Source: Deinococcales bacterium
GTDB taxonomy: Bacteria; Deinococcota; Deinococci; Deinococcales; JAAFIG01
Reading direction: 5' to 3'
Assembly (NCBI GenBank): GCA_043730305.1
Contig: JAYTKL010000416.1
Coordinates: 1 to 11,614 of the forward strand
DNA: 11,614 bases
The notes under the pieces were generated by a model, which saw only the letters and a program-made list of their open reading frames with translations, did no database searches and was not told the origin of the DNA. The position numbers and the translations under genes were made by a program. Of the stretch, positions 1 to 11,614 are shown piece after piece (position 1 is the first letter of the stretch; each line of letters begins with the position of its first letter).

Positions 1-444
1 CAGCAAAACTCTCGATTCGTATCATCATCTTGTCAAAGAACTCACCCGCTCGAGTTCCTTCCCTTGCGGGGGGCGCTCTCGAAGGCGGCGATAAATGTAT
101 CACCCAAGTTGGGATGTGTCAACACCTGATGTTTTGGGTTTGGACTCGAGTTGTAAAAGATTGATTTTTTACGTCAGGGACAAGTCCAGGTAAGCCAGTG
201 GAATTTGAGGGATAAAACTCAAGCTTCGAGAACGCGTCATTCTTGAAGCCCGAGATTATTATTTTTGGGGTTTTAGAAAATTGTTCGTGATTGCAGAAAA
301 AGCAGCGATTGTGCTTGCCCCTCTCATTCCCAACTTTACTGAATTCTCGAGAGATAAAAATTTCTGTGCTGGACTTGATTCGTTTTAAAACATTGAAAGA
401 AACTGGTGGCATTATGATTGGTTGTCTTAAAACAACCGCAGTCT

Positions 445-1206
445 TTACTGCACGGTCTGTTGGATTTCGATTGCGCCGTAAATCTCGGGTTGTTCAACCT
501 CGAGTTCTCCAGCACGAACGCCCTCAAGCATGGCGCTGAATAAAACGGTGCGTTCGCCCCAGTCGGTGGCGGGAATGTCTGCAAAGAAGAATTTTTTGAG
601 CTTTTGACTGAAGACACGTAGACGCTCGAGAGCTTGGGGAAGTGTTAAGCGGTCATGGGCGAGGTCAAACAGGTTGACTTCGCGGACGCGGCGCTTGGCG
701 GCTTCGACCAGATCGCCGATGCTTTGGGTGAGTGGGCGCATTTTGCGCGGAAGGTTGATTGGTACGGGGCTGGCAATCAGCATTTTTGAACGTTCTTTGC
801 GGCGGTCACGCAAGAACGAGATTGCACCCTCGAGTTGCGCCAGGGCTTCGACGCCTGAGAGGACATCCTCGAGTGAGGCATCAATTTCATCGGCGTCTCC
901 ATGATGAACTTTAATGGGGCGCGGCAGCAACAAACGCGCTTTGAGTTCAATCACGCCAGCCAAGTGCGGCAGGGCTTCGGACGCCAAGTCCAAACTGCCG
1001 ATGCTGAGAACCTCGAGTTCGGTGCGAAAATTTTCAAAACGCAGCAACACGGCGCGGGTCAACTCGAGGAGCGGCACAAAAGCGGGTTCGAGCTTGCCAG
1101 CACGCAACGCGGCGGCAAGCTCGAGCAGCGTGCCTTCAAAACCTTCAAAACGAGCAATGAAGGTGATCTCGAAGGTGTCTATTGGCTCGAGGATGGCTTG
1201 GGTCAT
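445..1206 (-). CDS. scpA: Segregation and condensation protein A (ScpA, kleisin of the SMC complex)
   Basis: 253 aa. N-terminal FEGFEGTLLELAAAL...LEP region resembles the ScpA FEGPLDLLLHLI motif. Central ..LDLASEALPHLAGVIELKARLLLP resembles ScpA ELDIASEYL...LLSIKSRMLLP. The ATG at 1204-1206 overlaps the trpS stop TGA (1203-1205) as ATGA, indicating translational coupling. Confidence 0.8.
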   Translation of the reverse strand: MTQAILEPIDTFEITFIARFEGFEGTLLELAAALRAGKLEPAFVPLLELTRAVLLRFENFRTELEVLSIGSLDLASEALPHLAGVIELKARLLLPRPIKVHHGDADEIDASLEDVLSGVEALAQLEGAISFLRDRRKERSKMLIASPVPINLPRKMRPLTQSIGDLVEAAKRRVREVNLFDLAHDRLTLPQALERLRVFSQKLKKFFFADIPATDWGERTVLFSAMLEGVRAGELEVEQPEIYGAIEIQQTVQ

Positions 1207-2219
1207 TGGCTGACAGGACGGATTGAATTGGGGCGCAATAAACCAATCGCGTCACGAACCTCGAGCATCGTCTCACGAGCAATTTTCTGGCAGTGTTCTG
1301 CGCCAGAAACCAAAGCGTCGGTGACTTCATGCGGGTGAGCTTGAAGGTGCGCGGCTCGAGCTTGAATCGGCTCGAGGGTTTCCATCAGACCGACCATCAG
1401 GCGTTTTTTGCAATCAATACAACCAATGCCGGCGGTACGGCAACCCGTGTCCACTTCTTGAATGGTCTCGAGGCTCGAGAAGAGCTTATGGTACGAGAAG
1501 ATCACACACTTTTCTGGTGTTCCAGGGTCGTTGCGGCGCACCCTAGCGGGATCGGTGGGCGCAACCCGAATTTTCTCCCAGAGTGCGGTTTGAGGCTCGA
1601 GCAACTCGAGGGTGTTGTTTTTGGATTTACTCATCTTGCCCGAATTGTCCAGACCAGGCACTCGAGCGGCGCTTTTGTCGATGCTGGCTTTGGGTTCTGG
1701 AAAGACAGGATTTTCGGGAGAGAACCTGGCGTTAAAACGCCGCGCGACCTCACGGGTGAGTTCGATGTGCTGAATTTGATCCTCGCCGACGGGAACGGTA
1801 TCGGCTTTGTAAAGCAGAATGTCGGCGGCTTGAAGCACGGGGTACATCAGTAAACCTGCCAGAACGCTGTGTTGTTCGGACTTATCCTTGAATTGCGTCA
1901 TGCGCTCAAGTTCGCCGAGCGGGGTTTGGGTACTGAAGACCCAGCCAAGTTCGAGGTGTTCTGGTACGTGTGACTGTGCGAAAAGCACAATTTTGTTGGG
2001 GTCAAGTCCCGCCGCCATGTTCGCCAGCGCCGCGTCGAAGGTGAGTTTCCCAAGCTGTTCACGGTCATGAGGAATGGTGATGGCGTGATAATCCACAATG
2101 CAAAAAATTGCGTCCTTACCGATTTGCTCACCAATTTTGACCCAGTTGCGGATTGCGCCCAAGTAATTGCCGATGTGCAAGTCGCCGGTTGGTTGAATGC
2201 CAGAAAAAACACGTTTCAC
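1203..2219 (-). CDS. trpS: Tryptophan--tRNA ligase (TrpRS, class I aaRS)
   Basis: 338 aa. N-terminus KRVFSGIQPTGDLHIGNYLGAIRNW carries the HIGH-type motif (HIGN) and a KMSKS motif (GKMSKSK) is present. The start codon is GTG (the + strand reads CAC at 2217-2219). Confidence 0.9.
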   Translation of the reverse strand: MKRVFSGIQPTGDLHIGNYLGAIRNWVKIGEQIGKDAIFCIVDYHAITIPHDREQLGKLTFDAALANMAAGLDPNKIVLFAQSHVPEHLELGWVFSTQTPLGELERMTQFKDKSEQHSVLAGLLMYPVLQAADILLYKADTVPVGEDQIQHIELTREVARRFNARFSPENPVFPEPKASIDKSAARVPGLDNSGKMSKSKNNTLELLEPQTALWEKIRVAPTDPARVRRNDPGTPEKCVIFSYHKLFSSLETIQEVDTGCRTAGIGCIDCKKRLMVGLMETLEPIQARAAHLQAHPHEVTDALVSGAEHCQKIARETMLEVRDAIGLLRPNSIRPVSQ

Positions 2220-2362
2220 GGCTCGAGTATACCGCCCATTTGAGATTTGCTTTGAGACCAGAGAAGTGGTTGAACTCGAGTGCGGGGTAATTCAATTTGA
2301 TTATCTCGAGTTTCTTTTTCAAACTAAAAAATAACTATTTTCACTTAAAACGAAAATTATAC

Positions 2363-2392
2363 TTAACAAATTATAAGATTAGGTTTTATAGT
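2363..2392 (+). promoter_or_regulatory. Candidate sigma70-type promoter for the 64-aa ORF: -35 TTAACA (2363-2368), 18-nt spacer, -10 TATAGT (2387-2392). It lies in the AT-rich divergent region shared with trpS.
   Basis: Hexamer matches read directly from the sequence. The AT-rich 2320-2400 block also contains TATAAT-like hexamers on the minus strand that could drive trpS. Confidence 0.3.
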
Positions 2393-2411
2393 ATTTCCAG
2401 GAGGCAGGAAA

Positions 2412-2606
2412 ATGAACAACCAAACCGAATGGGCACTCAGCGTCAACCGTCAGCACCTCGAGCAACTCCTGCACGACGCAGACAACCACCGTCAACTTCA
2501 AAGCGCTCTCGGCAACTGGCGACACCAACTCGCTCAAACCCTACAAGCCTGGGCAAAAAAACTCGAACCAGAACTCGAGCTTCAAACAACCAGAAAAATG
2601 GCATAA
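2412..2606 (+). CDS. Hypothetical small protein (64 aa, hydrophilic, predicted helical)
   Basis: ATG preceded by AGGAGG about 8 nt upstream (ccaggaggcaggaaaATG). Stop TAA at 2604-2606, followed by a hairpin. I recognise no domain. Confidence 0.4.
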   Translation: MNNQTEWALSVNRQHLEQLLHDADNHRQLQSALGNWRHQLAQTLQAWAKKLEPELELQTTRKMA

Positions 2607-2608
2607 AA

Positions 2609-2630
2609 AAAGGCATCCGAAGATGCCTCG
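2609..2630. terminator. Intrinsic terminator hairpin AGGCATC-cgaa-GATGCCT between convergent genes. On the minus strand it is followed by T7, so it mainly serves the peroxiredoxin gene.
   Basis: 7-bp perfect stem with a 4-nt loop at 2611-2628. An A7 tract lies immediately 5' on the + strand, which reads as a T7 tail on the minus strand. Stops of flanking genes are at 2606 (+) and 2650 (-). Confidence 0.6.
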
Positions 2631-2649
2631 AGATTGAGCAAAAGTTTTT

Positions 2650-3186
2650 CTAACCGCAAGAAACAGTACCGCTCAACACCACCTTGCAATCGCCTTTTTG
2701 CTTCACGAACTCGAGATTCTCAGCCGCATCATTGACCGCGTTGACACCACGTTTGATGGCGTTCACCTTGCCCGAAGGCGCGATAATCACCGTGTCGCGG
2801 CTGTACAACCCAAACCCCGAAGCAACATCGAACGCCTTTGCCAACTCGAACTTGGTATCGGGGATTTGCGGGATTTTTAGCGCGTACTTTTTAACAAAAT
2901 CACATTGTTTGCCGCTCGCATCGTTCGAGACGCCGTACACCACCGCACCCGCATCCAAAAAATCTTGGTAACGCTTGGTGTACTCGATATTCTGCGCCGT
3001 GCAACCACTTGTAAAAGCCCGAGGGTAAAAAAACAGCACAATCCACTTTCCCTTGTCTGCCTCGAGCTTGATGGTTTTGCCAAACGAATCCTTGATGGTC
3101 GGCAGCGGCGCGAGTTCGCCGACTTTTAACGCCAGGACGAGGCTCGAGCAAACCAGTACAGCCAGAAATGCGAACAGGATTTTCAT
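2650..3186 (-). CDS. Bcp/PrxQ-type peroxiredoxin (AhpC/TSA redoxin family) with an N-terminal signal peptide
   Basis: 178 aa. VLFFYPRAFTSGCTAQ matches the Bcp/PrxQ active site F-T-P/S-G-C-T-x-Q with the peroxidatic Cys. The N-terminus MKILFAFLAVLVCSSLVLALKVG is a hydrophobic signal-peptide-like segment. There is no Cys at +5, so this is probably a 1-Cys or atypical 2-Cys enzyme. Confidence 0.8.
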   Translation of the reverse strand: MKILFAFLAVLVCSSLVLALKVGELAPLPTIKDSFGKTIKLEADKGKWIVLFFYPRAFTSGCTAQNIEYTKRYQDFLDAGAVVYGVSNDASGKQCDFVKKYALKIPQIPDTKFELAKAFDVASGFGLYSRDTVIIAPSGKVNAIKRGVNAVNDAAENLEFVKQKGDCKVVLSGTVSCG

Positions 3187-3231
3187 GACTCGAGTCTAGT
3201 CCTTTTGCTTAGGATATTTTGTAAACTGGCT

Positions 3232-4074
3232 TTAAGTTCTGTGATTTCCAGAAAGTTTCACGGGAACTTGCAACTCAATCACGCAAGGCACACCCTCGCC
3301 GTAACCCTCAGGCATCTCGAGATACACCTGACGCACCGCCCCAACAGTGCTGTAACCATTTTCTTCGACCCAAGCGAGCAAGCCAAGCAAGGCATCTTCA
3401 ACTTTTTGCCATTCGTGTACACCCTTAAACTCGAGGTATGCAGCCATCGGCACACCTGCCAGTTTATAAACCTTAACCAGGTCGCTTTCTGGGATTGGTT
3501 TCTCGAGCATTTGCGCGACTTCCATCTTCCAGAAATCATCTTGGGTTGGATGCGCAATATTGATCTGCGGCAAGGCACTCTGAACGCCGCATTGTGCCAG
3601 ATGGTCGAACAAAACCAAATAATAATTTTTGAGTGATCGAACCTTTTCCTCGAGCACATCAAGGTCAGGATTGCCGACAGACGCGACCAAGCAAGCGGGC
3701 AGCGCTTTGAGATTGACTGAATAATCAAACATGTTGTTCTCCTGACCGATGCGTTCAAGCCTGAGTTCGACTTGTTCGAGCCGATTTTTTTGTTCCAAAA
3801 TATGGGTTTCCAGTTCGGCTTTGCGCAACTCGAGCAAGTCCTTTAAGCGTTCTGGCGCGAAACCGTTGGCGGTTAAGGTCGTAATTTGCTCGAGTGAAAA
3901 TCCCAGGTCACGCAATGCCAGAATGCGGTTGAGTAACGCCATCTGACTGACGCCGTACTCACGGTATCCGGTCAGAGAATCAATACGCGTTGGTTTGAAC
4001 AAACCAATCTCGTCGTAATGACGTAACGTTCGGGTAGAAACTCGAGCCAGATGCGCAAGATCACTGATTTTCAT
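3232..4074 (-). CDS. MerR-family transcriptional regulator with a C-terminal GyrI-like (BmrR/TipA-type effector-binding) domain
   Basis: 280 aa. N-terminal MKISDLAHLARVSTRTLRHYDEIGLFKP is a canonical MerR HTH. A coiled-coil linker (LKDLLELRKAELETHILEQKNRLEQVELRLERI) follows, then a roughly 150-aa C-terminal domain typical of GyrI-like ligand binding. An SD (AAGGAAG) sits 4 nt upstream of the ATG. Confidence 0.85.
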   Translation of the reverse strand: MKISDLAHLARVSTRTLRHYDEIGLFKPTRIDSLTGYREYGVSQMALLNRILALRDLGFSLEQITTLTANGFAPERLKDLLELRKAELETHILEQKNRLEQVELRLERIGQENNMFDYSVNLKALPACLVASVGNPDLDVLEEKVRSLKNYYLVLFDHLAQCGVQSALPQINIAHPTQDDFWKMEVAQMLEKPIPESDLVKVYKLAGVPMAAYLEFKGVHEWQKVEDALLGLLAWVEENGYSTVGAVRQVYLEMPEGYGEGVPCVIELQVPVKLSGNHRT

Positions 4075-4106
4075 GTTGACTTCCTTTTGTTTGAGCGCTC
4101 GAGAAT

Positions 4107-4137
4107 CACAATGGACGTTTCCGTAACGTAAAAGTCA
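4107..4137 (-). promoter_or_regulatory. MerR-type promoter/operator for the merR-prxQ operon. On the minus strand: -35 TTGACT, a 19-bp spacer containing the dyad ACGTTacggaAACGT, then -10 CATTGT.
   Basis: Minus strand reads cgcTTGACTtttACGTTacggaAACGTcCATTGTgattc. A 19-bp spacer with a centred inverted repeat is the hallmark of MerR-regulated promoters. The -10 is weak but keeps A(-11) and T(-7). + strand coordinates: dyad 4114-4128, -35 at 4132-4137. Confidence 0.35.
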
Positions 4138-4172
4138 AGCGCCTACAAAGCACTCGAGAAGTAGAAACGAAC

Positions 4173-4200
4173 CTTGAATGATTGCTCATAAACCCTAAAA
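4173..4200 (+). promoter_or_regulatory. Candidate promoter for the secreted-protein gene: -35 TTGAAT (4173-4178), 16-nt spacer, -10 TAAAAT (4195-4200).
   Basis: Hexamer match only. The downstream gene at 4222 has no recognisable SD. Confidence 0.25.
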
Positions 4201-4221
4201 TTCTTCTCGTACACTCCTTCT

Positions 4222-5499
4222 ATGAAAAAGAACCTGCAACTCGCCGTTCTCGCCATCACCGTAGCTTTATCCAGCGCCAAAGCCACCGACGCAACCTTGT
4301 ACTACAACTTTGCCGAAATCCGCGAACCCGTGCAAATTACGGGCAACCGTTTCGATTGGTCTCCAGCCGCCGACCTTGGACAGTACCTTGTGCCTGGAAG
4401 TTTGGAACTCGAGTACCCAGAAATTTTTAACGTTAATCTTCTGCCTGCCAGCCAGAGTTTGTTGACGGCGTTTGAAGGCAAAGAAGTGCTGTTAAAACGC
4501 GATAACAAACTGGTCAAAGCCACTGTCATCAAAGCCAATATTGGCTTGTTTCAAATAGGCAACCAGTTTGTGCAAGCCAACGTTGCCGATGTGGTTTTTC
4601 CAACACTCGAGGGTGTGCGATTTGCCCCAACCTACTCGTGGACTTTGGGTGGCAGTGGCGGCTCGAGCGTGCTGACATACTTGACGAGGGGCATCACTTG
4701 GAGTCCACGTTATACGCTTGCCATTAAAGGCGATGATGCGAAATTAACGGGCTGGGCAGATGTCCAAAACGCAAGCGGTGTGGAGTACAAAACACCGAAA
4801 CTCGAGTTGATCGCTGGACAAGTCAATTTAAGTTCTGGAAATTACGACCAGAACGTGCAACCTTACGCCGTTAACGCCGCCGCCCCAATCGCCAAAGCCT
4901 CGAGCGACAGTGCGCCAAGCATCGAAGCCGCAGGTGAAAGCGCGGGTTTGCAGACCTTCAAATTTAACAGCCCTGCGACACTGGCAGCCCGCACCACGAC
5001 CAGCTTGCCGTTCATCAACACCAAAGCCAGCCTCGAGCGGAGTTTTGAGTATTACAGTGGTTTTAATGGCAGCCCAAAAATTGTGGTGCCACTCAGCCGC
5101 GTGTACAACATCAAAACCGATTCAGATTTGCCAGGTGGGGTCATGACCGTGCGTGAGGATGCCAGGGTGGTTGGGCAAGCTCGAATCTCTGACAATCCCA
5201 AAGCCGAAAAAGCCACGGTCAACCTGGGCGCAGATTTTGACTTACGCTTGACCCGCACGGTACAAACCCTGAGCCGCACGAATACCAACATCAAGTACAA
5301 AGTCAATTTCAGCATTACCAACACCAAATCCAGGGCAGTCACAGTCAAGATCAATGAGGTTTTGGGTGGGCAAAATTACGCGCTCGAGGCTGTGAAATTA
5401 CCGAACATCAAAAACAACGAAGAGGGCATCAGTGCGGTCAATACCCTGAAACCAGGCGAGAAGTTCGAGGCGACCTATACGATCACTTTCAAGTACTAA
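4222..5499 (+). CDS. Secreted protein of unknown function, probably the DUF4139 family (MuiA-like), with a cleavable signal peptide
   Basis: 425 aa. N-terminus MKKNLQLAVLAITVALSSAKA is a classic Sec signal peptide (AKA cleavage site). The mature part is Thr/Ser/Asn-rich and beta-rich. The segment LTYLTRGITWSPRYTLAIKGD resembles the DUF4139 core as I remember it. No SD is present upstream. Confidence 0.7.
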   Translation: MKKNLQLAVLAITVALSSAKATDATLYYNFAEIREPVQITGNRFDWSPAADLGQYLVPGSLELEYPEIFNVNLLPASQSLLTAFEGKEVLLKRDNKLVKATVIKANIGLFQIGNQFVQANVADVVFPTLEGVRFAPTYSWTLGGSGGSSVLTYLTRGITWSPRYTLAIKGDDAKLTGWADVQNASGVEYKTPKLELIAGQVNLSSGNYDQNVQPYAVNAAAPIAKASSDSAPSIEAAGESAGLQTFKFNSPATLAARTTTSLPFINTKASLERSFEYYSGFNGSPKIVVPLSRVYNIKTDSDLPGGVMTVREDARVVGQARISDNPKAEKATVNLGADFDLRLTRTVQTLSRTNTNIKYKVNFSITNTKSRAVTVKINEVLGGQNYALEAVKLPNIKNNEEGISAVNTLKPGEKFEATYTITFKY

Positions 5500-5513
5500 A
5501 AACCGCAACAATT

Positions 5514-5556
5514 CAAAAGCTCGAGAGGTTTTGGACTCTCGAGCTTTTGTTTTGAA
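5514..5556. terminator. Bidirectional intrinsic terminator between convergent genes: perfect 14-bp stem CAAAAGCTCGAGAG / CTCTCGAGCTTTTG, 8-nt loop, then TTTTG on the + strand.
   Basis: Stem 5514-5527 pairs with 5536-5549, loop gttttgga, T-rich tail 5550-5553. Flanked by the stop of the 4222..5499 gene (TAA at 5497-5499) and the stop of the DUF1801 gene (5559-5561, minus strand). The stem is built from two CTCGAG copies. Confidence 0.7.
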
Positions 5557-5558
5557 AT

Positions 5559-5981
5559 TTACGACTCTGGGTATTTCTCGAGCATGTGTTTTACCGAGCC
5601 TCGAATCAGTTTCTCGAGCGTGGGGAGGTCAACATCGGAGAGTTTTTTGATGTACAAACACGACTTTCCAACCACATGTTTTCCCAGTTGAGCACGTAAT
5701 GCCTCAAATTCTTCAAAACCACTGACGATGTAAAGCACGATATTTTGTTTGCGTGGCGCGAAACCAATTCGCATCCAATCGGCTTCGCGCCCAGAGGCGT
5801 ACCGGTAATGGTAAGTGCCAAAACCGATGATGCTCGCACCCCACATTTTGGCGCTCGAGTGGGTGGCGTCTTGCATGATCTGAACGATGGTCTGGCAATC
5901 GTTGCGAACCTGGTGATTTGGGATTGACTCGAGAAAATCACTTACGGAAGCATCCGTTAATTTGGTTTTGAGTTCTGCCAT
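5559..5981 (-). CDS. DUF1801 (YdhG/YdeI-like) domain protein
   Basis: 140 aa. KMWGASIIGFGTYHYRYASGREADWMRIGFAPRKQNIVLYI...GKHVVGKSCLYIKKLSDVDLPTLEKLI matches the DUF1801 core (MWG..iGFG.yhYkY.sGre.d...iGFspRK...vlY...GKh..gKsClYi..l.d.d...L..Li). An SD (AAGGA) sits 5 nt upstream of the ATG. Confidence 0.8.
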   Translation of the reverse strand: MAELKTKLTDASVSDFLESIPNHQVRNDCQTIVQIMQDATHSSAKMWGASIIGFGTYHYRYASGREADWMRIGFAPRKQNIVLYIVSGFEEFEALRAQLGKHVVGKSCLYIKKLSDVDLPTLEKLIRGSVKHMLEKYPES

Positions 5982-6038
5982 AACTGTCCTTACGCTTCAA
6001 TAGATTTTCAGAACGCAGCCTGTTTTTTTGTTGACAGC

Positions 6039-6067
6039 ATAATAGCGGCTTGGGTCCAAAACTTCAA
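6039..6067 (-). promoter_or_regulatory. Candidate promoter for the DUF1801 gene, read on the minus strand: -35 TTGAAG, 17-nt spacer, -10 TATTAT.
   Basis: Minus strand reads gattgaagTTTTGGACCCAAGCCGCtattatgc. + strand coordinates: ATAATA at 6039-6044, CTTCAA at 6062-6067. Confidence 0.25.
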
Positions 6068-6349
6068 TCACCCCAATCAGAACTGTCGAAGCCGTCGCCG
6101 AACGAATGCACAAACTCCAAGCTTTGAGCGTCAAACTTACGATTGTTGACTTTGACACGGGTTACTCGAGACTCAGCCATTTGTAGGGCTTGACGTTTGA
6201 TATTTTGAAAATTGATAGGTCATTTGTGATCGACCTCGGGCTACAATCTGAAATGTGATGGTTCTCGAGCGTCCAAAGGTGCATTTGGGAACGTTTTGTT
6301 GAAGCATCGCGTATCGTGATGCAAGAGGAAACCTCAATTCCTCTCGCAG

Positions 6350-6370
6350 TTGTCAAACACGCCTTGACAA
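6350..6370. promoter_or_regulatory. Perfect 7-bp inverted repeat TTGTCAA-N7-TTGACAA, about 70 bp upstream of the yqiJ-like/flotillin operon start. Candidate operator. Two small hairpins (6303-6321, 6323-6342) lie immediately upstream.
   Basis: Read directly: ttgtcaa acacgcc ttgacaa. The dyad half-site is itself -35-like (TTGACA). Confidence 0.25.
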
Positions 6371-6441
6371 GGCAATCAACTACAACACATTGATTCTCTA
6401 CTGCATCATATGTTTTGGAAAGTCACCCAAGGAGGAAACAC

Positions 6442-7089
6442 ATGGCATGGCTCGAGTGGTGGAATTTCATGTTTATTGCACCACTGGGTGCAGGAATCAT
6501 CATGGCGGTATTGGTCGTGTTCTCTGGAGCGTTCTCGAGCGACAGTGCAGGACATGGACACGGTGAAGCTGCCGACACAGCCGATCATGACGGACATTTT
6601 GATGGCGGTCATGGCGATTCAGATCATGGTAAAAGCTTTGATCTTTTCGCCTGGTTTGGCATCGGACGCGGCGTAAGTATCAGTGTAATGCTGCCAATTC
6701 TTTTGGCTGGCTGGGGGCTGACTGGATTTTTGAGCAATTTAATTCTCGAGCCAACCTTGCGTTTTCCTCAATTGTTCAGCGCTATCAGTGTGATCGTGGC
6801 TTTTCTAGGCTCGAGTTTTATCGGACGCAACTTTGCCCAGGGTTTTATTCAGTTTGCCGATCAAAATCGTAAAACCAACATTCAAAGCGCCGAACTGGTC
6901 GGTTGTTTCGGTTCGAGCGTTTTTGAAATCAGCAACGATGGTGGTGCAGCCAACATCAAAGACCCTTTTGGCAACATCCACCGTGTCAGTGTGATCAGTC
7001 GCGGTGAGACCATTGCCGCCAACCAAGCCGTTCGGGTGCTCGAGTATCAACGTGGGATTTATGTTGTACAGGAGGAAGTCAATGATTAG
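6442..7089 (+). CDS. NfeD-short / YqiJ-like inner-membrane protein (DUF1449, OB-fold C-terminus), partner of the downstream flotillin
   Basis: The ORF track starts at 6415, but the ATG at 6442 is preceded by GGAGG 7 nt upstream, giving MAWLEWWNF... (216 aa). It has three predicted TM helices and a His/Asp-rich loop (aa 34-63). The C-terminal domain ..DPFGNIHRVSVISRGETIAANQAVRVLEYQRGIYVV resembles the E. coli YqiJ/NfeD beta-barrel. Its stop TAG (7087-7089) overlaps the flotillin ATG (7082-7084) by 8 nt. Confidence 0.75.
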   Translation: MAWLEWWNFMFIAPLGAGIIMAVLVVFSGAFSSDSAGHGHGEAADTADHDGHFDGGHGDSDHGKSFDLFAWFGIGRGVSISVMLPILLAGWGLTGFLSNLILEPTLRFPQLFSAISVIVAFLGSSFIGRNFAQGFIQFADQNRKTNIQSAELVGCFGSSVFEISNDGGAANIKDPFGNIHRVSVISRGETIAANQAVRVLEYQRGIYVVQEEVND

Positions 7090-8887
7090 TTTTGTATTAA
7101 TTGCGTTGTCCATCCCGTTCTTTGCCTTGTCCTTGTTTGGCGCTTCGTTCATCTCGACCTGGGGTGCCATCAATTCTGGCATTACTGGTGGACTGGGACT
7201 GCTGTTCTTGCTGGTTGGTTTGGCAGCTTGGGCGTACACGCAGTTTTACATCAAACCAAGCGCCAACCTGGCGTATGTTCGCACAGGTCTGGGAGGACGC
7301 ACGGTCTTCATTGACAAAGGCGGATTCTTTATTCCAGTCGTACACAGGCTGGTCGCCGTCAACCTCGAAACCCTCAAGCTCGAGGTGGAACGCAAAGGCT
7401 TGGATGCCCTGATCACCAAAGACAATTTGCGCGTCGATGTCAAAGCCGAATTCTACATTAAAGTGCATCCCGAAGAAGATGCAGTCATGAACGCCAGCCG
7501 TTCCTTGGGCGAAAAAAGCGTGACTGCCCAAGAAGTGGCGCATCTGGTGTTTGAAAAACTGGTTTCGGCGCTGCGGTCTGTTGCCGCCACCAAAGATTTG
7601 GTCGAGATTCACTCGCAGCGCAACGCTTTTGCCAGTGGTGTTCAAGACTTGGTTCGGGCTGACCTTGAACCAAACGGTCTGAGCTTGGAATCCGTGACGA
7701 TTTCTAAACTCGATCAAACCAATCAAGATTTGCTGTCAGACACCAATATTTTTGACGCGCAAGGCAAACGCAAAATCACCGAAATCACCCAGGAAGCCTT
7801 GGTTGAACGCAACCGCATTGAACAAGAAGCCAGACGGCAACTGACCATCAAAAATGTCGAAATTGCAACCGAAGTGCTGGCACTCGAGCGTTCCAAAGCC
7901 GAAGCCGAAGCATCACAACAATCTGAAATTGCCAAAGTCCAAGCCGAAAAACATCGAGAAGCTCAAACATACCGTTTTGAACAGGATCGTCAAATCAAAG
8001 AAGCCGAAATCACGATGGAACAAGCGGTGCAAACAGCCACCATCGAACGCGATTTGCAAGTGATCTTAAAAGAACAAGAGCGCGAAAAAACCAATATTGA
8101 ACGCGAAAAAGTGATCGAGGTCGCACAACGCGAACGTGAAATTGCCGTGACCGATGCCGAACGCCGCCGTGCCGATGCCGAAAAACTGTCCTTAGAATCG
8201 CAAGCCGAACGTGAAAAAGCCAATCAGAGCATCACCACCGTTTCGCAACTGGCACAAGCCGAACGTGAAGCCCAAACCAAACTGATTGCCGCCAAACAAG
8301 CCATTGAACAAGACCGCTTTAAACAACAAACCAATGCCGAGGTCAACGCCTTTAGTGAAGTCAAAAAATCTGAAGCTCAAAAACAAAGTGCCGAACTTGA
8401 CGCCACCGCAACCTTGCGCCGTGCCGAAGCCGAATCCAGCGCCAAAGAACAAATGGCTCGAGGCGACACCGCCGTGAAACGCGTGGACGTTGACATTGCC
8501 AGGGAAAACGTTGAAGTCGAACGCGCTCGGGTTGAAGTTGCCCGTCAAGCGCTCGAGAACAAACAAACTTTCTCGGCAGCCGCGCTCGAGTTTGAATTGC
8601 AAAAACTACGGATTGAAGCAAACCGTGACGTGCAAGCAGAGATGGCAAAAGCCCTTGGGCAAATGCTTTCAAAAGGCAACATGAACATTTACGGCGACCC
8701 TGAAACCCTGGCAAAAGTGAACCAACAATTCATGAATGGCATGGGAGTTGGTGCAGCCGTAGACGGCACGCTGAGCGGCTTAGGGCTGGATAGCAAAGAT
8801 GTTTTGCCGCAACTGGCAGCCTTGCTGACACAACTTGGTGTTGTCATGAATAAACCAACGATAGATAAAACCGAAAAGGAAAAGTAA
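7082..8887 (+). CDS. Flotillin-like SPFH/Band-7 protein (YqiK/FloT family) with a long EA-rich coiled-coil
   Basis: The track ORF starts at 7004, but the in-frame ATG at 7082 follows AGGAGG (caggaggaagtcaATG), giving MISFVLIALSIPFFALSLF... (601 aa). It has an N-terminal membrane hairpin, an SPFH domain (YVRTGLGGRTVFIDKGGFFIPVVHRLVAVNLETLKLEV), and then about 300 aa of E/A/K/Q/R heptad-rich coiled coil typical of flotillins. Stop TAA at 8885-8887. Confidence 0.9.
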   Translation: MISFVLIALSIPFFALSLFGASFISTWGAINSGITGGLGLLFLLVGLAAWAYTQFYIKPSANLAYVRTGLGGRTVFIDKGGFFIPVVHRLVAVNLETLKLEVERKGLDALITKDNLRVDVKAEFYIKVHPEEDAVMNASRSLGEKSVTAQEVAHLVFEKLVSALRSVAATKDLVEIHSQRNAFASGVQDLVRADLEPNGLSLESVTISKLDQTNQDLLSDTNIFDAQGKRKITEITQEALVERNRIEQEARRQLTIKNVEIATEVLALERSKAEAEASQQSEIAKVQAEKHREAQTYRFEQDRQIKEAEITMEQAVQTATIERDLQVILKEQEREKTNIEREKVIEVAQREREIAVTDAERRRADAEKLSLESQAEREKANQSITTVSQLAQAEREAQTKLIAAKQAIEQDRFKQQTNAEVNAFSEVKKSEAQKQSAELDATATLRRAEAESSAKEQMARGDTAVKRVDVDIARENVEVERARVEVARQALENKQTFSAAALEFELQKLRIEANRDVQAEMAKALGQMLSKGNMNIYGDPETLAKVNQQFMNGMGVGAAVDGTLSGLGLDSKDVLPQLAALLTQLGVVMNKPTIDKTEKEK

Positions 8888-8907
8888 CTCTAAAACTTTA
8901 ATCAGAA

Positions 8908-8945
8908 CAAAAGCTCGAGAGACTAAATCTCGAGTTTTTTTGATT
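8908..8945. terminator. Intrinsic terminator after the flotillin gene: stem CAAAAGCTCGAG / CTCGAGTTTTT (11 bp including one G-U), 9-nt loop, U-rich tail.
   Basis: 8909-8919 pairs with 8929-8939. The T7 run at 8935-8941 is followed by gattt. Two CTCGAG copies again form the stem. Confidence 0.65.
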
Positions 8946-8979
8946 TAACATTCTCGAAAAGATCGGCTAAACTAAAACC

Positions 8980-9528
8980 ATGACCATGCTCGAGTCAAAA
9001 ATCATGACCGCACACGAATACCTCGAGTTTGAGAAAAGCTCTGAAATTCGTCATGAATTCGTGGACGGTAAACTGTACGCGATGGCGGGCGAAACACTGC
9101 TTCATGACGACATTGTTTTGAACATCGTCGAAGCTTTACGTACAACCGCTCGAGCAAAAAGTTGCCAATTGCACGCCACCAACATTCAAACGCTGGTCAA
9201 AGGCAACCGTTACCGTTACCCAGACGTTGTTCTGACTTGCGAAACCATTCGCAACCCGCGTTTGATCCAAGCGCCATGTTTTATTCTCGAGGTGCTTTCA
9301 GACAGCACCGCCGACGTGGATCACGGCATTAAACTCGAGGAGTCCACCAACATACTTTCGTTGCAACGTTACGCCATCGTTTCACAAAACACCCGTCAAG
9401 TGATTGTTTACAAACGCGAGGGCGAACGTTGGACGTTTGAAGTGCTGCTCGAGAACGGTGAGATTGAAATTCCTTGCCTCGAGACGAGCCTGACGCTCGA
9501 GCAAATTTACGCCAACCTCGAGTTTTAA
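8980..9528 (+). CDS. Uma2-family (DUF820) putative restriction-endonuclease-like protein
   Basis: 182 aa. N-terminal ..TAHEYLEFEKSSEIRHEFVDGKLYAMAGETLLHDDIVLNI.. matches the Uma2 pattern (EYL.lE...e.r.Ey.dGei..Ma). It also has the PD-(D/E)xK-like D..E.K arrangement (YPDVVLTCE...LEVLSDST). No SD is present, so the true start could instead be M3 or M9. Confidence 0.75.
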   Translation: MTMLESKIMTAHEYLEFEKSSEIRHEFVDGKLYAMAGETLLHDDIVLNIVEALRTTARAKSCQLHATNIQTLVKGNRYRYPDVVLTCETIRNPRLIQAPCFILEVLSDSTADVDHGIKLEESTNILSLQRYAIVSQNTRQVIVYKREGERWTFEVLLENGEIEIPCLETSLTLEQIYANLEF

Positions 9529-9617
9529 CCCGAGTACGCCATTTGGCTGATCGAACCTCGAGATACTTTTTAGTGTACACTCTTGAAAATACTTTTTGCA
9601 TTGGAGGTGACACGAAT

Positions 9618-9749
9618 ATGAAAACAACTCAGCCCCTTTTAACCCTCGCTTCGAGGCTCTTCGCCCTGTCTTATAAATCCAGGAGTCAAAGTGATTCATA
9701 CCGTATCAGCCTTACCATGCCAGTGCAATTCTCAACACTCGAGTTTTAA
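9618..9749 (+). CDS. Hypothetical 43-aa Ser/Thr-rich peptide: MKTTQPLLTLASRLFALSYKSRSQSDSYRISLTMPVQFSTLEF
   Basis: ATG at 9618 is preceded by a near-perfect SD, GGAGGTGA (9603-9610), with a 7-nt spacer. Stop TAA at 9747-9749 lies 18 nt before the RIO kinase ATG. 13 of 43 residues are Ser or Thr. I find no homology. The call rests on the SD strength and on position. Confidence 0.3.
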   Translation: MKTTQPLLTLASRLFALSYKSRSQSDSYRISLTMPVQFSTLEF

Positions 9750-9767
9750 AACCCAGTCGGTAGCATC

Positions 9768-10685
9768 ATGAGCCGCCGTCCAAGCACCCGCGACAGCAAC
9801 CTGTCCTGGGATGAAAACCGTGAAGCCTTCCAAGATCGCGGGCATCGTCACGCCCGCAAACCACCGCGTCGGCGTAGCGTTGCCGCGCTCTTATCCGAAA
9901 ATCAAACAGATTACAAAGTCGAAGAACACGTTAAGTTTGACGACCCAGGCTTGCAAGAACTGTTCGAGCGCGGTTTGATTACTGATCTTTTATGGGAATT
10001 AAAATCTGGTAAGGAAGCCACCGTCTACGTGGTCGAAGGTAAAGAAGGACTTGCCGCCGCCAAACTTTACATTGACTCTCGAGTGCGGTCTTTCAAGAAC
10101 GATTCGCTTTACAGAGGCTCGAGGTTCATTGGTGATAAGCGCATTCAGAAAGCCATTGAATTGCGCTCGAACACTGGCGTTCAAGTTCAAAATATTTTGT
10201 GGGTGCAAGAAGAATTTGGGCAAATGCACGCGCTGCAAAACGCTGGCGTTCCAGTGCCGCGACCCATTGCGTTAGCCGAAGCTGGCAACGTGATCTTGAT
10301 GGAATTTATTGGTGACGAAAGCGGGGCTGCACCGCGACTCTCAGATGCCAAACTTTCTAAAACTCTTGCCGAAGAAGCCTTTCGTCAGAGCGTTCACAAC
10401 ATGGGTTTGATTCTGGGCGCGGGACGGGTTCACGGCGATTACAGCACCTTCAACATTTTGTGGTGGCAAGAACGCTGCATCGTGATTGACTTCCCACAAG
10501 TCGTGCTGGTGCAAGAAAACCCCAGCGCCAACATGATTCTCGAGCGTGACGTGGCGGGTTTGTGTCGCAGTTTTGGGCATTTTGGGTTGCGTCCAGACCC
10601 AGTGGAGACTTTAAAGCAAGTGTGCCGTGTGGCTCGAGAGGTGCAGATTGCCAAACCGTCTGAAGAACTGGCATTGGTGCTTTAA
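9768..10685 (+). CDS. RIO1-family atypical Ser/Thr protein kinase
   Basis: 305 aa. ATVYVVEGKEGLAAAKLY corresponds to the RIO nucleotide-binding loop plus the conserved Lys (STGKEA.VY..........AVKIY). HGDYSTFNILW corresponds to the catalytic loop HADLSEYNIL. IDFPQVV corresponds to metal-binding IDxxQ(S/A)V. ILERDVAGLCRSF corresponds to the RIO C-terminal FL.RD..N...FF. Catalytic Lys and both Asp residues are conserved. Confidence 0.8.
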   Translation: MSRRPSTRDSNLSWDENREAFQDRGHRHARKPPRRRSVAALLSENQTDYKVEEHVKFDDPGLQELFERGLITDLLWELKSGKEATVYVVEGKEGLAAAKLYIDSRVRSFKNDSLYRGSRFIGDKRIQKAIELRSNTGVQVQNILWVQEEFGQMHALQNAGVPVPRPIALAEAGNVILMEFIGDESGAAPRLSDAKLSKTLAEEAFRQSVHNMGLILGAGRVHGDYSTFNILWWQERCIVIDFPQVVLVQENPSANMILERDVAGLCRSFGHFGLRPDPVETLKQVCRVAREVQIAKPSEELALVL

Positions 10686-10741
10686 ACGCGATCTACATCA
10701 AATTCGATCTTTCATCTTTCTTTTACCAGAACGGGGTTTTC

Positions 10742-11488
10742 ATGAATATTCCAGAAATGAATTATGACGGTGCATTTTACAAAGCCATTGGTGATTTTCA
10801 ACGCGAGAAGTATCTCGAGGAGGGTTACACGCAAGGCACAGTTCAAGAGGTGGATTTTTTGATTGAGCATCTGAACCTCAAACCAGGCAGTCGAATTCTT
10901 GATGTGGGTTGCGGCACGGGTCGTCACTGTCTCGAGTTCGCCAAACGCGGTTTTGACATGCTTGGCGTGGACATTTCAGATGGTCATATCAATGTGGCGA
11001 AACGATTGGCAAGCGAGCAAAATTTAAACACCGAATTTATGGTTTTAGACGCTCGAGCCATGAATTTTAACGCCGAGTTTGATGCCGCAATTTGTTTGTG
11101 CGAAGGTGCGTTTGGCATTGCGGGAGACGAAATGGGACATCGCCAAATTTTGGCAGGCACGGCTCGAGCACTGCGTTCCAACGCGCCGTTTGTCCTGACG
11201 GCTATCAATGCCTTATCTGCTGTGCGAAACCTACCCAATCCAGGTACGATTCGTTTTGACCCGTACACACTGACCTCGTACAGCAAATGGACTCCAACCA
11301 GTCCCGAAGGTGAAACTCGAGAATTTGATGGGTACTGCACTGCTTTTACTTACCGAGAATTGAAGTGGTTGCTTGAGGGCGCAGGTTTTGCAGTGCAACA
11401 AGCTTATGGCTGCGTGGCAGGACGCTTTGAGAGCAAAGTATTGACGCTCGAGGATATTGAAATCATGATGGTGGCGCATAAAACTTAA
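10742..11488 (+). CDS. Class I SAM-dependent methyltransferase (small-molecule/UbiE-like type)
   Basis: 248 aa. Motif I ILDVGCGTGRHCLEFAKRGFDMLGVDIS. The acidic residue ending beta-2 and motif II/III spacing (MVLDARAMNF....AAICLC) match Rossmann-fold MTases. There is no DPPY/NPPF motif, so it is unlikely to be a DNA N6A/N4C MTase. Confidence 0.85.
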   Translation: MNIPEMNYDGAFYKAIGDFQREKYLEEGYTQGTVQEVDFLIEHLNLKPGSRILDVGCGTGRHCLEFAKRGFDMLGVDISDGHINVAKRLASEQNLNTEFMVLDARAMNFNAEFDAAICLCEGAFGIAGDEMGHRQILAGTARALRSNAPFVLTAINALSAVRNLPNPGTIRFDPYTLTSYSKWTPTSPEGETREFDGYCTAFTYRELKWLLEGAGFAVQQAYGCVAGRFESKVLTLEDIEIMMVAHKT

Positions 11489-11568
11489 ACTCGAGCCTTC
11501 ACATCCGTCATTCGGCAGATGCAAAACCGCAGCTCGAGCGGTCAGAATAGGCGCAGGAGATTCAAACC

Positions 11569-11614
11569 ATGCAAATTCGTGCGTTTACCGAAAATGATTA
11601 CGAAACGGTTGCCA
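11569..11614 (+). CDS. 5' end of an ORF (MQIRAFTENDYETVA...). The N-terminus resembles a GNAT-family acetyltransferase, but the ORF is too short to call.
   Basis: ATG at 11569 is preceded by GGAGA, 8 nt upstream (gcaggagattcaaaccATG). The ORF runs off the window end. Confidence 0.3.
   Translation, partial: MQIRAFTENDYETVA

Follow-up and report, generated by a model that had tools for sequence, protein, structure and literature searches.

A candidate control leader with two nested upstream reading frames and a covarying long-range helix before a RIO1-family kinase gene in Deinococcales

The stretch of DNA analysed here, hereafter the window, comprises positions 1 to 11,614 of contig JAYTKL010000416.1 (GenBank assembly GCA_043730305.1; 11,614 nucleotides, nt) from an uncultured Deinococcales genome, and our subject is the 230 bases that precede its gene for a RIO1-family kinase/ATPase (RIO; 9768..10685, this and all other features being on the forward strand). 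These bases contain two upstream open reading frames (uORFs), ORF-A and ORF-B, which overlap in different frames, and the leader joins three translation start sites by one covarying helix, P1, and a stop/start overlap. We consider it probable, at roughly 60%, that the 230 bases are a cis-acting control leader and not a gene for a functional peptide, and that synthesis of RIO is tied to the translation of both uORFs. A reading of the window made from its letters alone (the sequence-only reading) had proposed that ORF-A encodes a precursor peptide served by tailoring enzymes, or a dedicated kinase substrate, with a regulatory element for RIO as its fallback. The evidence below supports the fallback and corrects the attractive picture of a peptide-modification cluster.

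Two sets of related loci, referred to by number (L003 and so on), carry the comparisons. The close relatives are ten distinct loci whose RIO proteins are 91-96% identical to that of the window, the range found for its closest metagenome-assembled genomes (MAGs). The further Deinococcota leaders come from six lineages with RIO proteins 53-64% identical (L168/L170/L004, L172, L173, L090-L092, L094, L088 and L003). Folds across lineages were made on 13 leaders from 7 lineages.

A small reading frame with a strong ribosome-binding site is kept before RIO

The Shine-Dalgarno sequence (SD) of ORF-A, GGAGGTGA at 9603-9610, is separated by a 7-nt spacer from the ATG at 9618 that opens this 43-codon frame (9618..9749, with TAA at 9747-9749). 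The hydroxyl-rich product, MKTTQPLLTLASRLFALSYKSRSQSDSYRISLTMPVQFSTLEF, has Ser or Thr at 13 of its 43 residues, and 18 nt lie between the stop codon and the RIO ATG at 9768, all as the sequence-only reading had described. Its description of this SD as the best in the window is fair, but the site is not unique: AGGAGG occurs in four copies, with that at 7070 standing 6 nt before the gene-caller start of a Band_7 gene (window 7082), and GGAGGT occurs in two, the second of which (5624) precedes no start codon examined.

Counterparts of ORF-A were found in 10 of the 10 close relatives and in the six further lineages, and in every leader collected an ATG preceded by a strong SD opens an ORF of 35-44 codons, 140-165 nt before RIO. 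The SD-to-start spacing is optimal in every lineage, and relative to the RIO start the ATG of ORF-A (ATG-A) lies at -141 to -165, and at -291. The distance between the two start codons is a multiple of 3 in 12 of the 13 leaders, namely those with a separate RIO start. The frame is open in 7 of 7 lineages, for which shuffling gives a combined chance of ~1.3e-5, a figure that treats the lineages as independent and therefore overstates the case.

A search of 5.8 billion proteins retrieved just three near-identical homologues of the ORF-A product, all from the same clade, and the one whose context was checked adjoins RIO. The peptide has no match in Pfam or NCBIfam. In Rfam 15, no match was returned for the window at gathering thresholds, for 9500-9800 at E<=10, or for 17 related loci, and ARAGORN detected no tRNA or tmRNA. 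Together with the literature, in which we found no description of it, these searches agree with the earlier view that the small ORF is undescribed.

A second frame ends on the RIO start codon

Within ORF-A lies a second ribosome-binding site, SD-B (AGGAG, 9681..9685), which is invariant in the close relatives and, read in the frame of ORF-A, spells Arg-Ser, the sole residues conserved there. It sits 5 nt before the GTG at 9691 that opens ORF-B (9691..9771), a 26-codon frame in the +1 register whose TGA (9769-9771) overlaps the RIO ATG as ATGA. Overlapping stop/start pairs of this kind (ATGA, TGATG) are the classic layout of translational coupling. Equivalents of SD-B are present in every lineage, as AGGAG or, in L173 and L003, as GAGG, some 5-10 nt before a GTG, TTG or ATG, and the equivalents of ORF-B, 21-34 codons long, end on or against the RIO ATG as ATGA, TGATG, TAATG or TAGATG. 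The overlap or abutment of stop and start is recorded for all 13 leaders and for L167.

The leader of L167 carries a 141-nt insertion inside ORF-B, across which the frame stays open at 73 codons (P(open)=0.015 by shuffling). The combined chance of an open ORF-B is ~1e-3 across 7 lineages and ~1.5e-5 with L167 included, both values assuming independence and therefore overstating the evidence. Nearly all indels in the leaders preserve frame, the 141-nt insertion among them. As a separate observation, this insertion (at about 2270-2410 of its locus, between the 3' arm of P1 and RIO) has an internal inverted repeat, TTAATTTGTAC...GTACAAATTAA, and may be a small mobile element.

The leader of L172 (3907-4041) is arranged differently. 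There, the internal AGGAG site and a TTG start initiate RIO itself, so that the 341-amino-acid (aa) protein is extended at its N-terminus; a separate ORF-B is missing, and P1 pairs the SD of ORF-A (SD-A) with the RIO start. Since the SD-B site starts RIO in this locus, ORF-B looks like a split-off RIO N-terminus that has been kept as a coupling ORF, and the L172 layout may be the ancestral arrangement.

ORF-B thus shows what is expected of translational coupling, i.e., an SD and start of its own at a working distance, a stop on the main start, and a frame kept in relatives. In both ORFs, openness and frame are maintained and sequence is not. Two ways of joining the frames into one product were considered and rejected: readthrough of the ORF-A stop codon into RIO would be in frame, but several relatives have two in-frame stops, and a programmed frameshift joining ORF-A, ORF-B and RIO would need two shifts, with no slippery site present.

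A covarying long-range helix buries both upstream start sites

RNAalifold, applied to nine close relatives, pairs 9596-9625 with 9691-9722. The 5' arm of the resulting helix P1 (9596..9625) holds SD-A, its spacer and ATG-A (9618-9620), and the 3' or anti-SD arm (9691..9722) lies within ORF-A and starts at the ORF-B start codon. Unconstrained minimum free energy folds give the same architecture in 13 of 13 leaders from the 7 lineages, with 20-26 long-range pairs in each, and in these 13 leaders the 3' arm begins between -9 and +6 nt from the start codon of the second ORF.

Alignment-based methods did not carry over to the full set of lineages. MAFFT followed by RNAalifold on all of them misaligned the 3' arm and hence returned no consensus structure, and a covariance model trained on the close relatives found the right site only in L094 (E=1e-5), in L173 (0.016) and, weakly, in L090-L092. 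Because this model was too sequence-specific, covariation was tested by arm permutation, an alignment-free procedure in which duplex energies are summed over cognate 5' and 3' arms and set against the sums for non-cognate arms across all 5040 permutations. The cognate P1 arms were the single best of the 5040 permutations in three representative sets, and when 21 segment pairs were put through the same test, only the P1 pair was significant.

A covariance-model alignment, which is fitted to the structure and hence biased towards P1, has 95.9% of P1 cells paired and 12 pairs that change on both sides, against 2.7±1.3 double-sided changes in shuffles and 1-5 in slid controls. Compensatory variants of the arms include GACACG:CGUAUC, GUGCGU:ACGCAC, GCUA:UAGC and GAAAGAGA:UCUCUUUC. 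Several columns of the helix show at least three pair types, for instance column -8 (GC 6, CG 4, AU 1) and column +4 (AU 4, CG 5, UA 1), and column +6 is divided between AU (6) and GC (6). P1 is a covarying helix that buries both the ORF-A start site and the ORF-B start codon. The structured 5' untranslated region that the sequence-only reading had named as the outcome that would overturn its own proposal is what we find, with the SD and ATG of the small ORF inside a long-range helix.

A further hairpin within ORF-A, P2 (9644..9656; CCUCG-N3-CGAGG), is a weakly supported prediction of RNAalifold, and some of its pairs change on both sides in the model-fitted alignment.

ORF-A does not evolve as a peptide

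Codon-position diversity separates ORF-A from RIO in the same genomes. Among the ten close relatives, diversity in RIO at codon positions 1, 2 and 3 is 0.081, 0.041 and 0.325, versus about 0.12, 0.12 and 0.13 in codons 1-24 of ORF-A, and third positions are invariant in 15 of 24 ORF-A codons versus 27% of those in RIO. In L090, L091 and L092, the corresponding values are 0.113/0.061/0.366 for RIO and 0.115/0.161/0.138 for the non-overlapping part of ORF-A. The amino acid sequence of ORF-A shows no sign of selection in these two independent groups.

Between lineages the ORF-A peptides cannot be aligned. What they have in common is a start of the form M-x-[TN]-[TN] and the Arg-Ser pair, whose codons, AGG AGU, are the ribosome-binding site of ORF-B. 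The richness in Ser and Thr that had drawn attention to the peptide follows from G-poor base composition: the body of ORF-A is 28-39% C and 13-17% G in all 7 lineages, a composition from which ~20% Ser/Thr is expected, and 13-31% is observed, with L003 at 13%.

For these reasons, neither part of the peptide proposal is supported. A precursor with tailoring enzymes would have to be reconciled with flat codon diversity, with peptides that have diverged, and with the lack of stable co-occurrence with any modifying enzyme; a dedicated kinase substrate, with a peptide under no visible selection and a Ser/Thr content explained by composition. Conservation of the small ORF in relatives, which the sequence-only reading had offered as the check on its proposal, held in one respect, in that the frame is kept open and tied to RIO, and failed in the other, in that it is not tied to the pair of RIO and methyltransferase. 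Flanking genes vary while the leader stays, and ORF-A therefore belongs to RIO and not to a methyltransferase/acetyltransferase module. The genes upstream of leader-bearing relatives include Uma2, DUF1801, an AraC/GyrI-like gene and others, and those downstream a methyltransferase, a different methyltransferase, a GNAT acetyltransferase directly, an unknown gene, or an MsbA-like ABC exporter.

Proposed mechanism and the evidence against it

P1 would form almost immediately after transcription had started near 9588, pairing the SD and start of ORF-A with a stretch ~70-125 nt downstream and masking both upstream start sites. A 30S subunit could bind SD-A while the nascent RNA still lacked the 3' arm, or during breathing of P1. 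A ribosome on ORF-A would then keep P1 open and expose the ORF-B start, and termination-reinitiation at the end of ORF-B would deliver ribosomes to the RIO start, whose initiation region (9759..9785) has a weak SD (GGTAG; GGTGG in relatives). Output of RIO would be low-level and set by upstream translation, i.e., by ribosome availability or activity, and not by its own start site.

Bacterial RIO kinases are widespread, and we know of no established function for them; their archaeal and eukaryotic homologues work on the small ribosomal subunit during its maturation. If the proposed mechanism is true, the leader would make RIO synthesis depend on ribosome loading at a masked SD of unusual strength. 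It would thereby connect a bacterial RIO enzyme to the status of translation, and it would offer a genetic handle on the conditions that switch RIO on.

Several points weigh against this account. Should P1 (~-23 kcal/mol) be stably formed, SD-A would itself be hidden, so that the model has to assume a kinetic window or an opening factor. None of the other 20 segment pairs shows cognate-specific pairing that would point to an alternative, switched structure, and in folding energy the whole leader of the window does not stand out from shuffled sequence (z = -0.38). A predicted hairpin that would mask SD-B, P3 (9663..9686; GCCCUG at 9663-9668 with CAGGAGU at 9680-9686), gains no support for covariation from the permutation test because its motifs are common to all lineages, and covariation of P4, predicted between the RIO initiation region and RIO codons 2-6, is likewise not supported. 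Two segments in the interior of P1, 9624-9641 and 9651-9670, are near-invariant among ten relatives whose RIO third positions differ in 33% of pairwise comparisons. Neither P1 nor coding accounts for this invariance, and another constraint acts on these bases, for which a protein site, a pseudoknot and a lineage-specific effect of the nascent peptide are candidates. The lineages are also related to one another, so that the multiplied probabilities and the Fisher and Mann-Whitney p-values given in this work overstate independence. Finally, the translation of ORF-A and ORF-B, the order of events and the physiological signal are points that we infer from the letters of the leader and its relatives.

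Alternative explanations

The leader might work mainly at the level of transcription, with translation of ORF-A covering a Rho-loading site, so that an untranslated ORF-A would lead to Rho termination before or within RIO, relatives using an intrinsic terminator in its place. C-rich, G-poor composition, which the ORF-A body has in all 7 lineages, is typical of Rho-utilisation sites, and terminator-like hairpins do stand before RIO in some distant relatives, in L089 by scan and, with U-runs, in L095 and in Anaerolineae by inspection. The window leader itself, however, has no intrinsic terminator, and this explanation leaves both ORF-B and its exact stop/start overlap with RIO unaccounted for. 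We consider it unlikely as the main mode of control; a Rho-dependent mechanism could also act alongside translational coupling.

Alternatively, ORF-A might be a nascent-peptide arrest or sensing leader of the erm, cat, tnaC or secM type, in which a ribosome stalled early in the frame opens P1 and exposes the ORF-B and RIO starts. The geometry fits, in that the partner masking the ORF-B start is the SD together with the first 8-10 codons of ORF-A. Among close relatives, the segments SRLFALS and RSQSDS are invariant down to their synonymous sites, which could reflect a joint constraint on peptide and RNA, and the neighbouring genes resemble resistance genes (GNATs, an APH-like kinase fold, a methyltransferase and an ABC exporter). 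No peptide motif is conserved between lineages, though, and no alternative pairing was detected among the segment pairs; moreover, RIO is a genuine RIO1-family protein and not an aminoglycoside phosphotransferase. On balance we find an arrest leader quite unlikely.

A purely RNA-level element, e.g., a 5' stabiliser of the STAB-SD type, an RNA thermometer, an RNase III site or a protein-binding site, would make the ORFs untranslated by-products. Conservation at the nucleotide level and the pairing of SD-A are what such an element would show. P1 also begins within ~10 nt of the inferred 5' end, and in L003, L088 and L094 it includes GAAAGGAGG-like sequences, which we take to resemble the cryIIIA stabiliser. 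The reading frames speak against it, since both are open far beyond expectation, nearly all indels keep frame, SD-start spacing is optimal in every lineage, and the ORF-B stop falls exactly on the RIO start in all lineages; we accordingly rate an RNA-only element as very unlikely.

Least probable of all is that ORF-A encodes a functional small peptide, either a precursor that, like those of ribosomally synthesised and post-translationally modified peptides (RiPPs), would be tailored by the kinase, the methyltransferase and the acetyltransferases, or a substrate dedicated to RIO: its strong SD, its openness in all lineages, its constant place beside RIO, its hydroxyl-rich product in the window and the tandem-GNAT genes that often follow RIO in Deinococcota would suit such a role, but there is no codon periodicity or synonymous excess, the sequence is unconserved apart from the SD-B codons, Ser/Thr content is compositional and falls to just 13% in L003, neither Pfam nor NCBIfam has a family that fits the peptide, the window methyltransferase scores 35 bits against the daptide RiPP methyltransferase model (cut-off 175), the SD is buried in a conserved helix, and the leader is kept without methyltransferase or GNAT in L090-L094, L003, L088 and L165-L167.

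Comparison with known leader systems

We judge the leader to work in the manner of bacterial uORF and translational-coupling systems (PMC13285730). As in those systems, the main start coincides with the end of an upstream ORF that has an SD of its own, and the initiation site of the main gene is weak. The RIO leader differs in having two nested uORFs in different frames, in having its first SD locked in a covarying helix with the start of the second ORF, and in having a RIO kinase gene as its putative target.

Other systems share single features with it. In mok/hok of the hok/sok type I toxin-antitoxin system, mok overlaps hok and is needed for its translation, and long-range pairing hides the upstream SD. 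The RIO leader likewise combines an overlapping upstream frame with long-range mRNA pairing in which folding kinetics or processing would matter, but it has no evident toxin or antisense RNA, its products are not hydrophobic, and its downstream gene encodes a 305-aa kinase; we do not claim membership. A hydrophobic toxin or a signal peptide had been considered for ORF-A in its own right and was rejected because the peptides are not hydrophobic across lineages.

The ermC, cat and cmlA leaders are translation attenuation systems based on a leader peptide. The resemblance lies in a short leader ORF with a strong SD and in a downstream start that is paired with the leader, here through the covarying P1, and that a ribosome would unmask. 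Unlike these systems, the RIO leader yielded neither a conserved arrest peptide nor an alternative set of hairpins nor an inducer, and its masking helix includes the SD of the leader itself.

The rpmI-rplT (L35-L20) operon relies on a long-range pseudoknot together with translational coupling. A long-distance RNA interaction and coupling would set the level of a translation-related protein in both cases, but evidence for a binding protein or a pseudoknot is lacking in the RIO leader, and the sequences are unrelated.

RiPP clusters share with the window a small ORF beside kinase, methyltransferase and acetyltransferase genes, and differ in that ORF-A has no peptide-level selection, conserved core or leader, stable enzyme co-occurrence or RiPP family match. 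An attenuator of the trp or his type is not indicated by codon runs in ORF-A or by a terminator in the window leader, neither of which is present. The RIO leader matches none of these systems in sequence or in full architecture, and it is new with respect to Rfam and to the literature that we found.

Upstream frames at other bacterial RIO genes

Strong-SD uORFs are frequent before RIO genes. Counting frames of 12-70 codons located 60-330 nt upstream, we found them at 48 of 142 RIO genes (34%) from many phyla, versus 14 of 812 (1.7%) other ORFs of at least 200 aa in the same loci, an odds ratio of 29 from loci that are not phylogenetically independent. Pairing with a downstream anti-SD is also predicted more often for the SDs of the uORFs than for those of ordinary strong-SD genes (0.72 vs 0.43, p=3.5e-9), and the excess is present in the distant loci alone (p=3.7e-5).

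Outside the lineages treated above, uORF-bearing RIO loci were seen in Chloroflexota (L010, L105, L106, L107, L140, L148 and L026), in Thermaceae (L089 and L095) and in Truepera (L096 and L101). The Anaerolineae uORF has 20 codons and ends in ...L[SN]APP...; the codons of this APP, GCGCCUCC, form an anti-SD that pairs with the SD of the uORF itself, and a hairpin with a U-run follows. The uORF of Meiothermus L089 has 25 codons; after it, and immediately ahead of RIO, the terminator scan flagged a terminator-like hairpin with a U-tract, and Thermaceae L095 has a similar layout by inspection. In L106, the scan flagged another hairpin than the one seen by inspection.

Neither the literature nor Rfam yielded a description of leaders on bacterial RIO genes. 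It is possible, though we hold the idea tentatively and with more doubt than confidence, that these leaders belong to an undescribed ribosome-sensing class found on bacterial RIO genes in several phyla, in which the SD of a uORF pairs with an anti-SD in its own coding region and the output is coupling in Deinococcales and a terminator in Thermaceae and Anaerolineae. On that view, the amount of RIO, putatively a factor in the maturation or quality control of the small subunit, would follow the supply of 30S subunits that are free or active.

The RIO gene and its neighbourhood

The RIO product (305 aa) matches Pfam PF01163 with E=1.3e-32, and its best NCBIfam match, to the PA4780-family RIO1-like kinase, is below cut-off. 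In keeping with the sequence-only reading, its catalytic residues are intact: SGKEA, the lysine of AAKLY, HGDYSTFN and IDFPQ are all kept relative to A. fulgidus Rio1 (1ZP9), and with them the nucleotide-binding loop, the catalytic Asp and the metal-binding Asp. The two other genes that this reading had placed downstream are also as described. A class I S-adenosylmethionine (SAM)-dependent methyltransferase (10742..11488; Pfam Methyltransf_25 and others) follows RIO after 56 nt, with no terminator-like site in the gap, and the GNAT-like ORF at the end of the window (11569..11614) is the start of a tandem-GNAT gene that encodes 323 aa on the source contig.

The proposed module of RIO, methyltransferase and acetyltransferase holds up in part. 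A recurrent neighbourhood of RIO and GNAT genes is real in many Deinococcota, including Thermaceae, but there is no stable linkage of a methyltransferase or GNAT with the small ORF. The slot between RIO and the GNAT array is variable. An orthologue of the window methyltransferase was found in L085 only, with a remnant in L163; L164, L173 and L174 have different methyltransferases, and L084 has none. Between RIO and the first GNAT gene, the window and L085 have the methyltransferase, L083, L086 and L087 have other genes, and in L084 the slot is empty.

Beyond the first GNAT gene, the source contig has three more and a YefM/YoeB pair, which is inserted within the array. Such arrays of tandem-GNAT paralogues (~320 aa, at most 4 in a row, one fused to 638 aa) stand downstream of RIO in many Deinococcota, here in L001 at 11802-17145 (downstream of the window), L083-L087, L168, L170, L172, L173, L093, L089 and L095. 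GNAT genes are absent within 4 kb of RIO in L090-L094, L003, L088 and L165-L167, the last three of which have the MsbA-like ABC exporter downstream instead.

Promoter region and iterated palindromes

A consensus promoter scan of the leader found no canonical -35/-10 pair. A putative -10 element, GTG-TACACT (9573..9581), has T9576, A9577, A9579 and T9581 invariant, and GTG(N)TANNNT recurs at equal distance in L090, L094, L003, L088, L168 and L173; transcription probably starts near 9588. Upstream of this promoter, ~45 nt before the inferred start, lies the palindrome GCCATTTGGC (9538..9547), which is near-invariant in close relatives, even in those with a different upstream gene, and has counterparts in L090-L092 (ACGCCATTTAGCCGATGC) and L094 (GCCAAATGGC). 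It may serve the RIO promoter as an operator or activator site.

A different palindrome, CTCGAG, is scattered over the whole window (1-11614), with 88 copies in 11.6 kb versus about 2-3 expected; the runner-up among 6-bp palindromes has 13. The repeat CTCGAGTTTTAA, which ends both Uma2 and ORF-A, was rejected as a signal, as ~1 such pair is expected by chance given 88 CTCGAG sites. The density of CTCGAG is 6-8/kb in several Deinococcales MAG lineages, ~3.6/kb in Thermaceae and 2-3/kb in Truepera. Its abundance is seen also in L001, L083, L087, L168, L170, L173, L090, L091, L094, L088 and L003, and L172 and the Chloroflexota loci have no copy of it. The behaviour of CTCGAG resembles that of cyanobacterial HIP1, and no literature was found that ties this sequence to highly iterated palindromes. 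Within genes, 44 of 60 sites are in codon phase 0, where they encode Leu-Glu.

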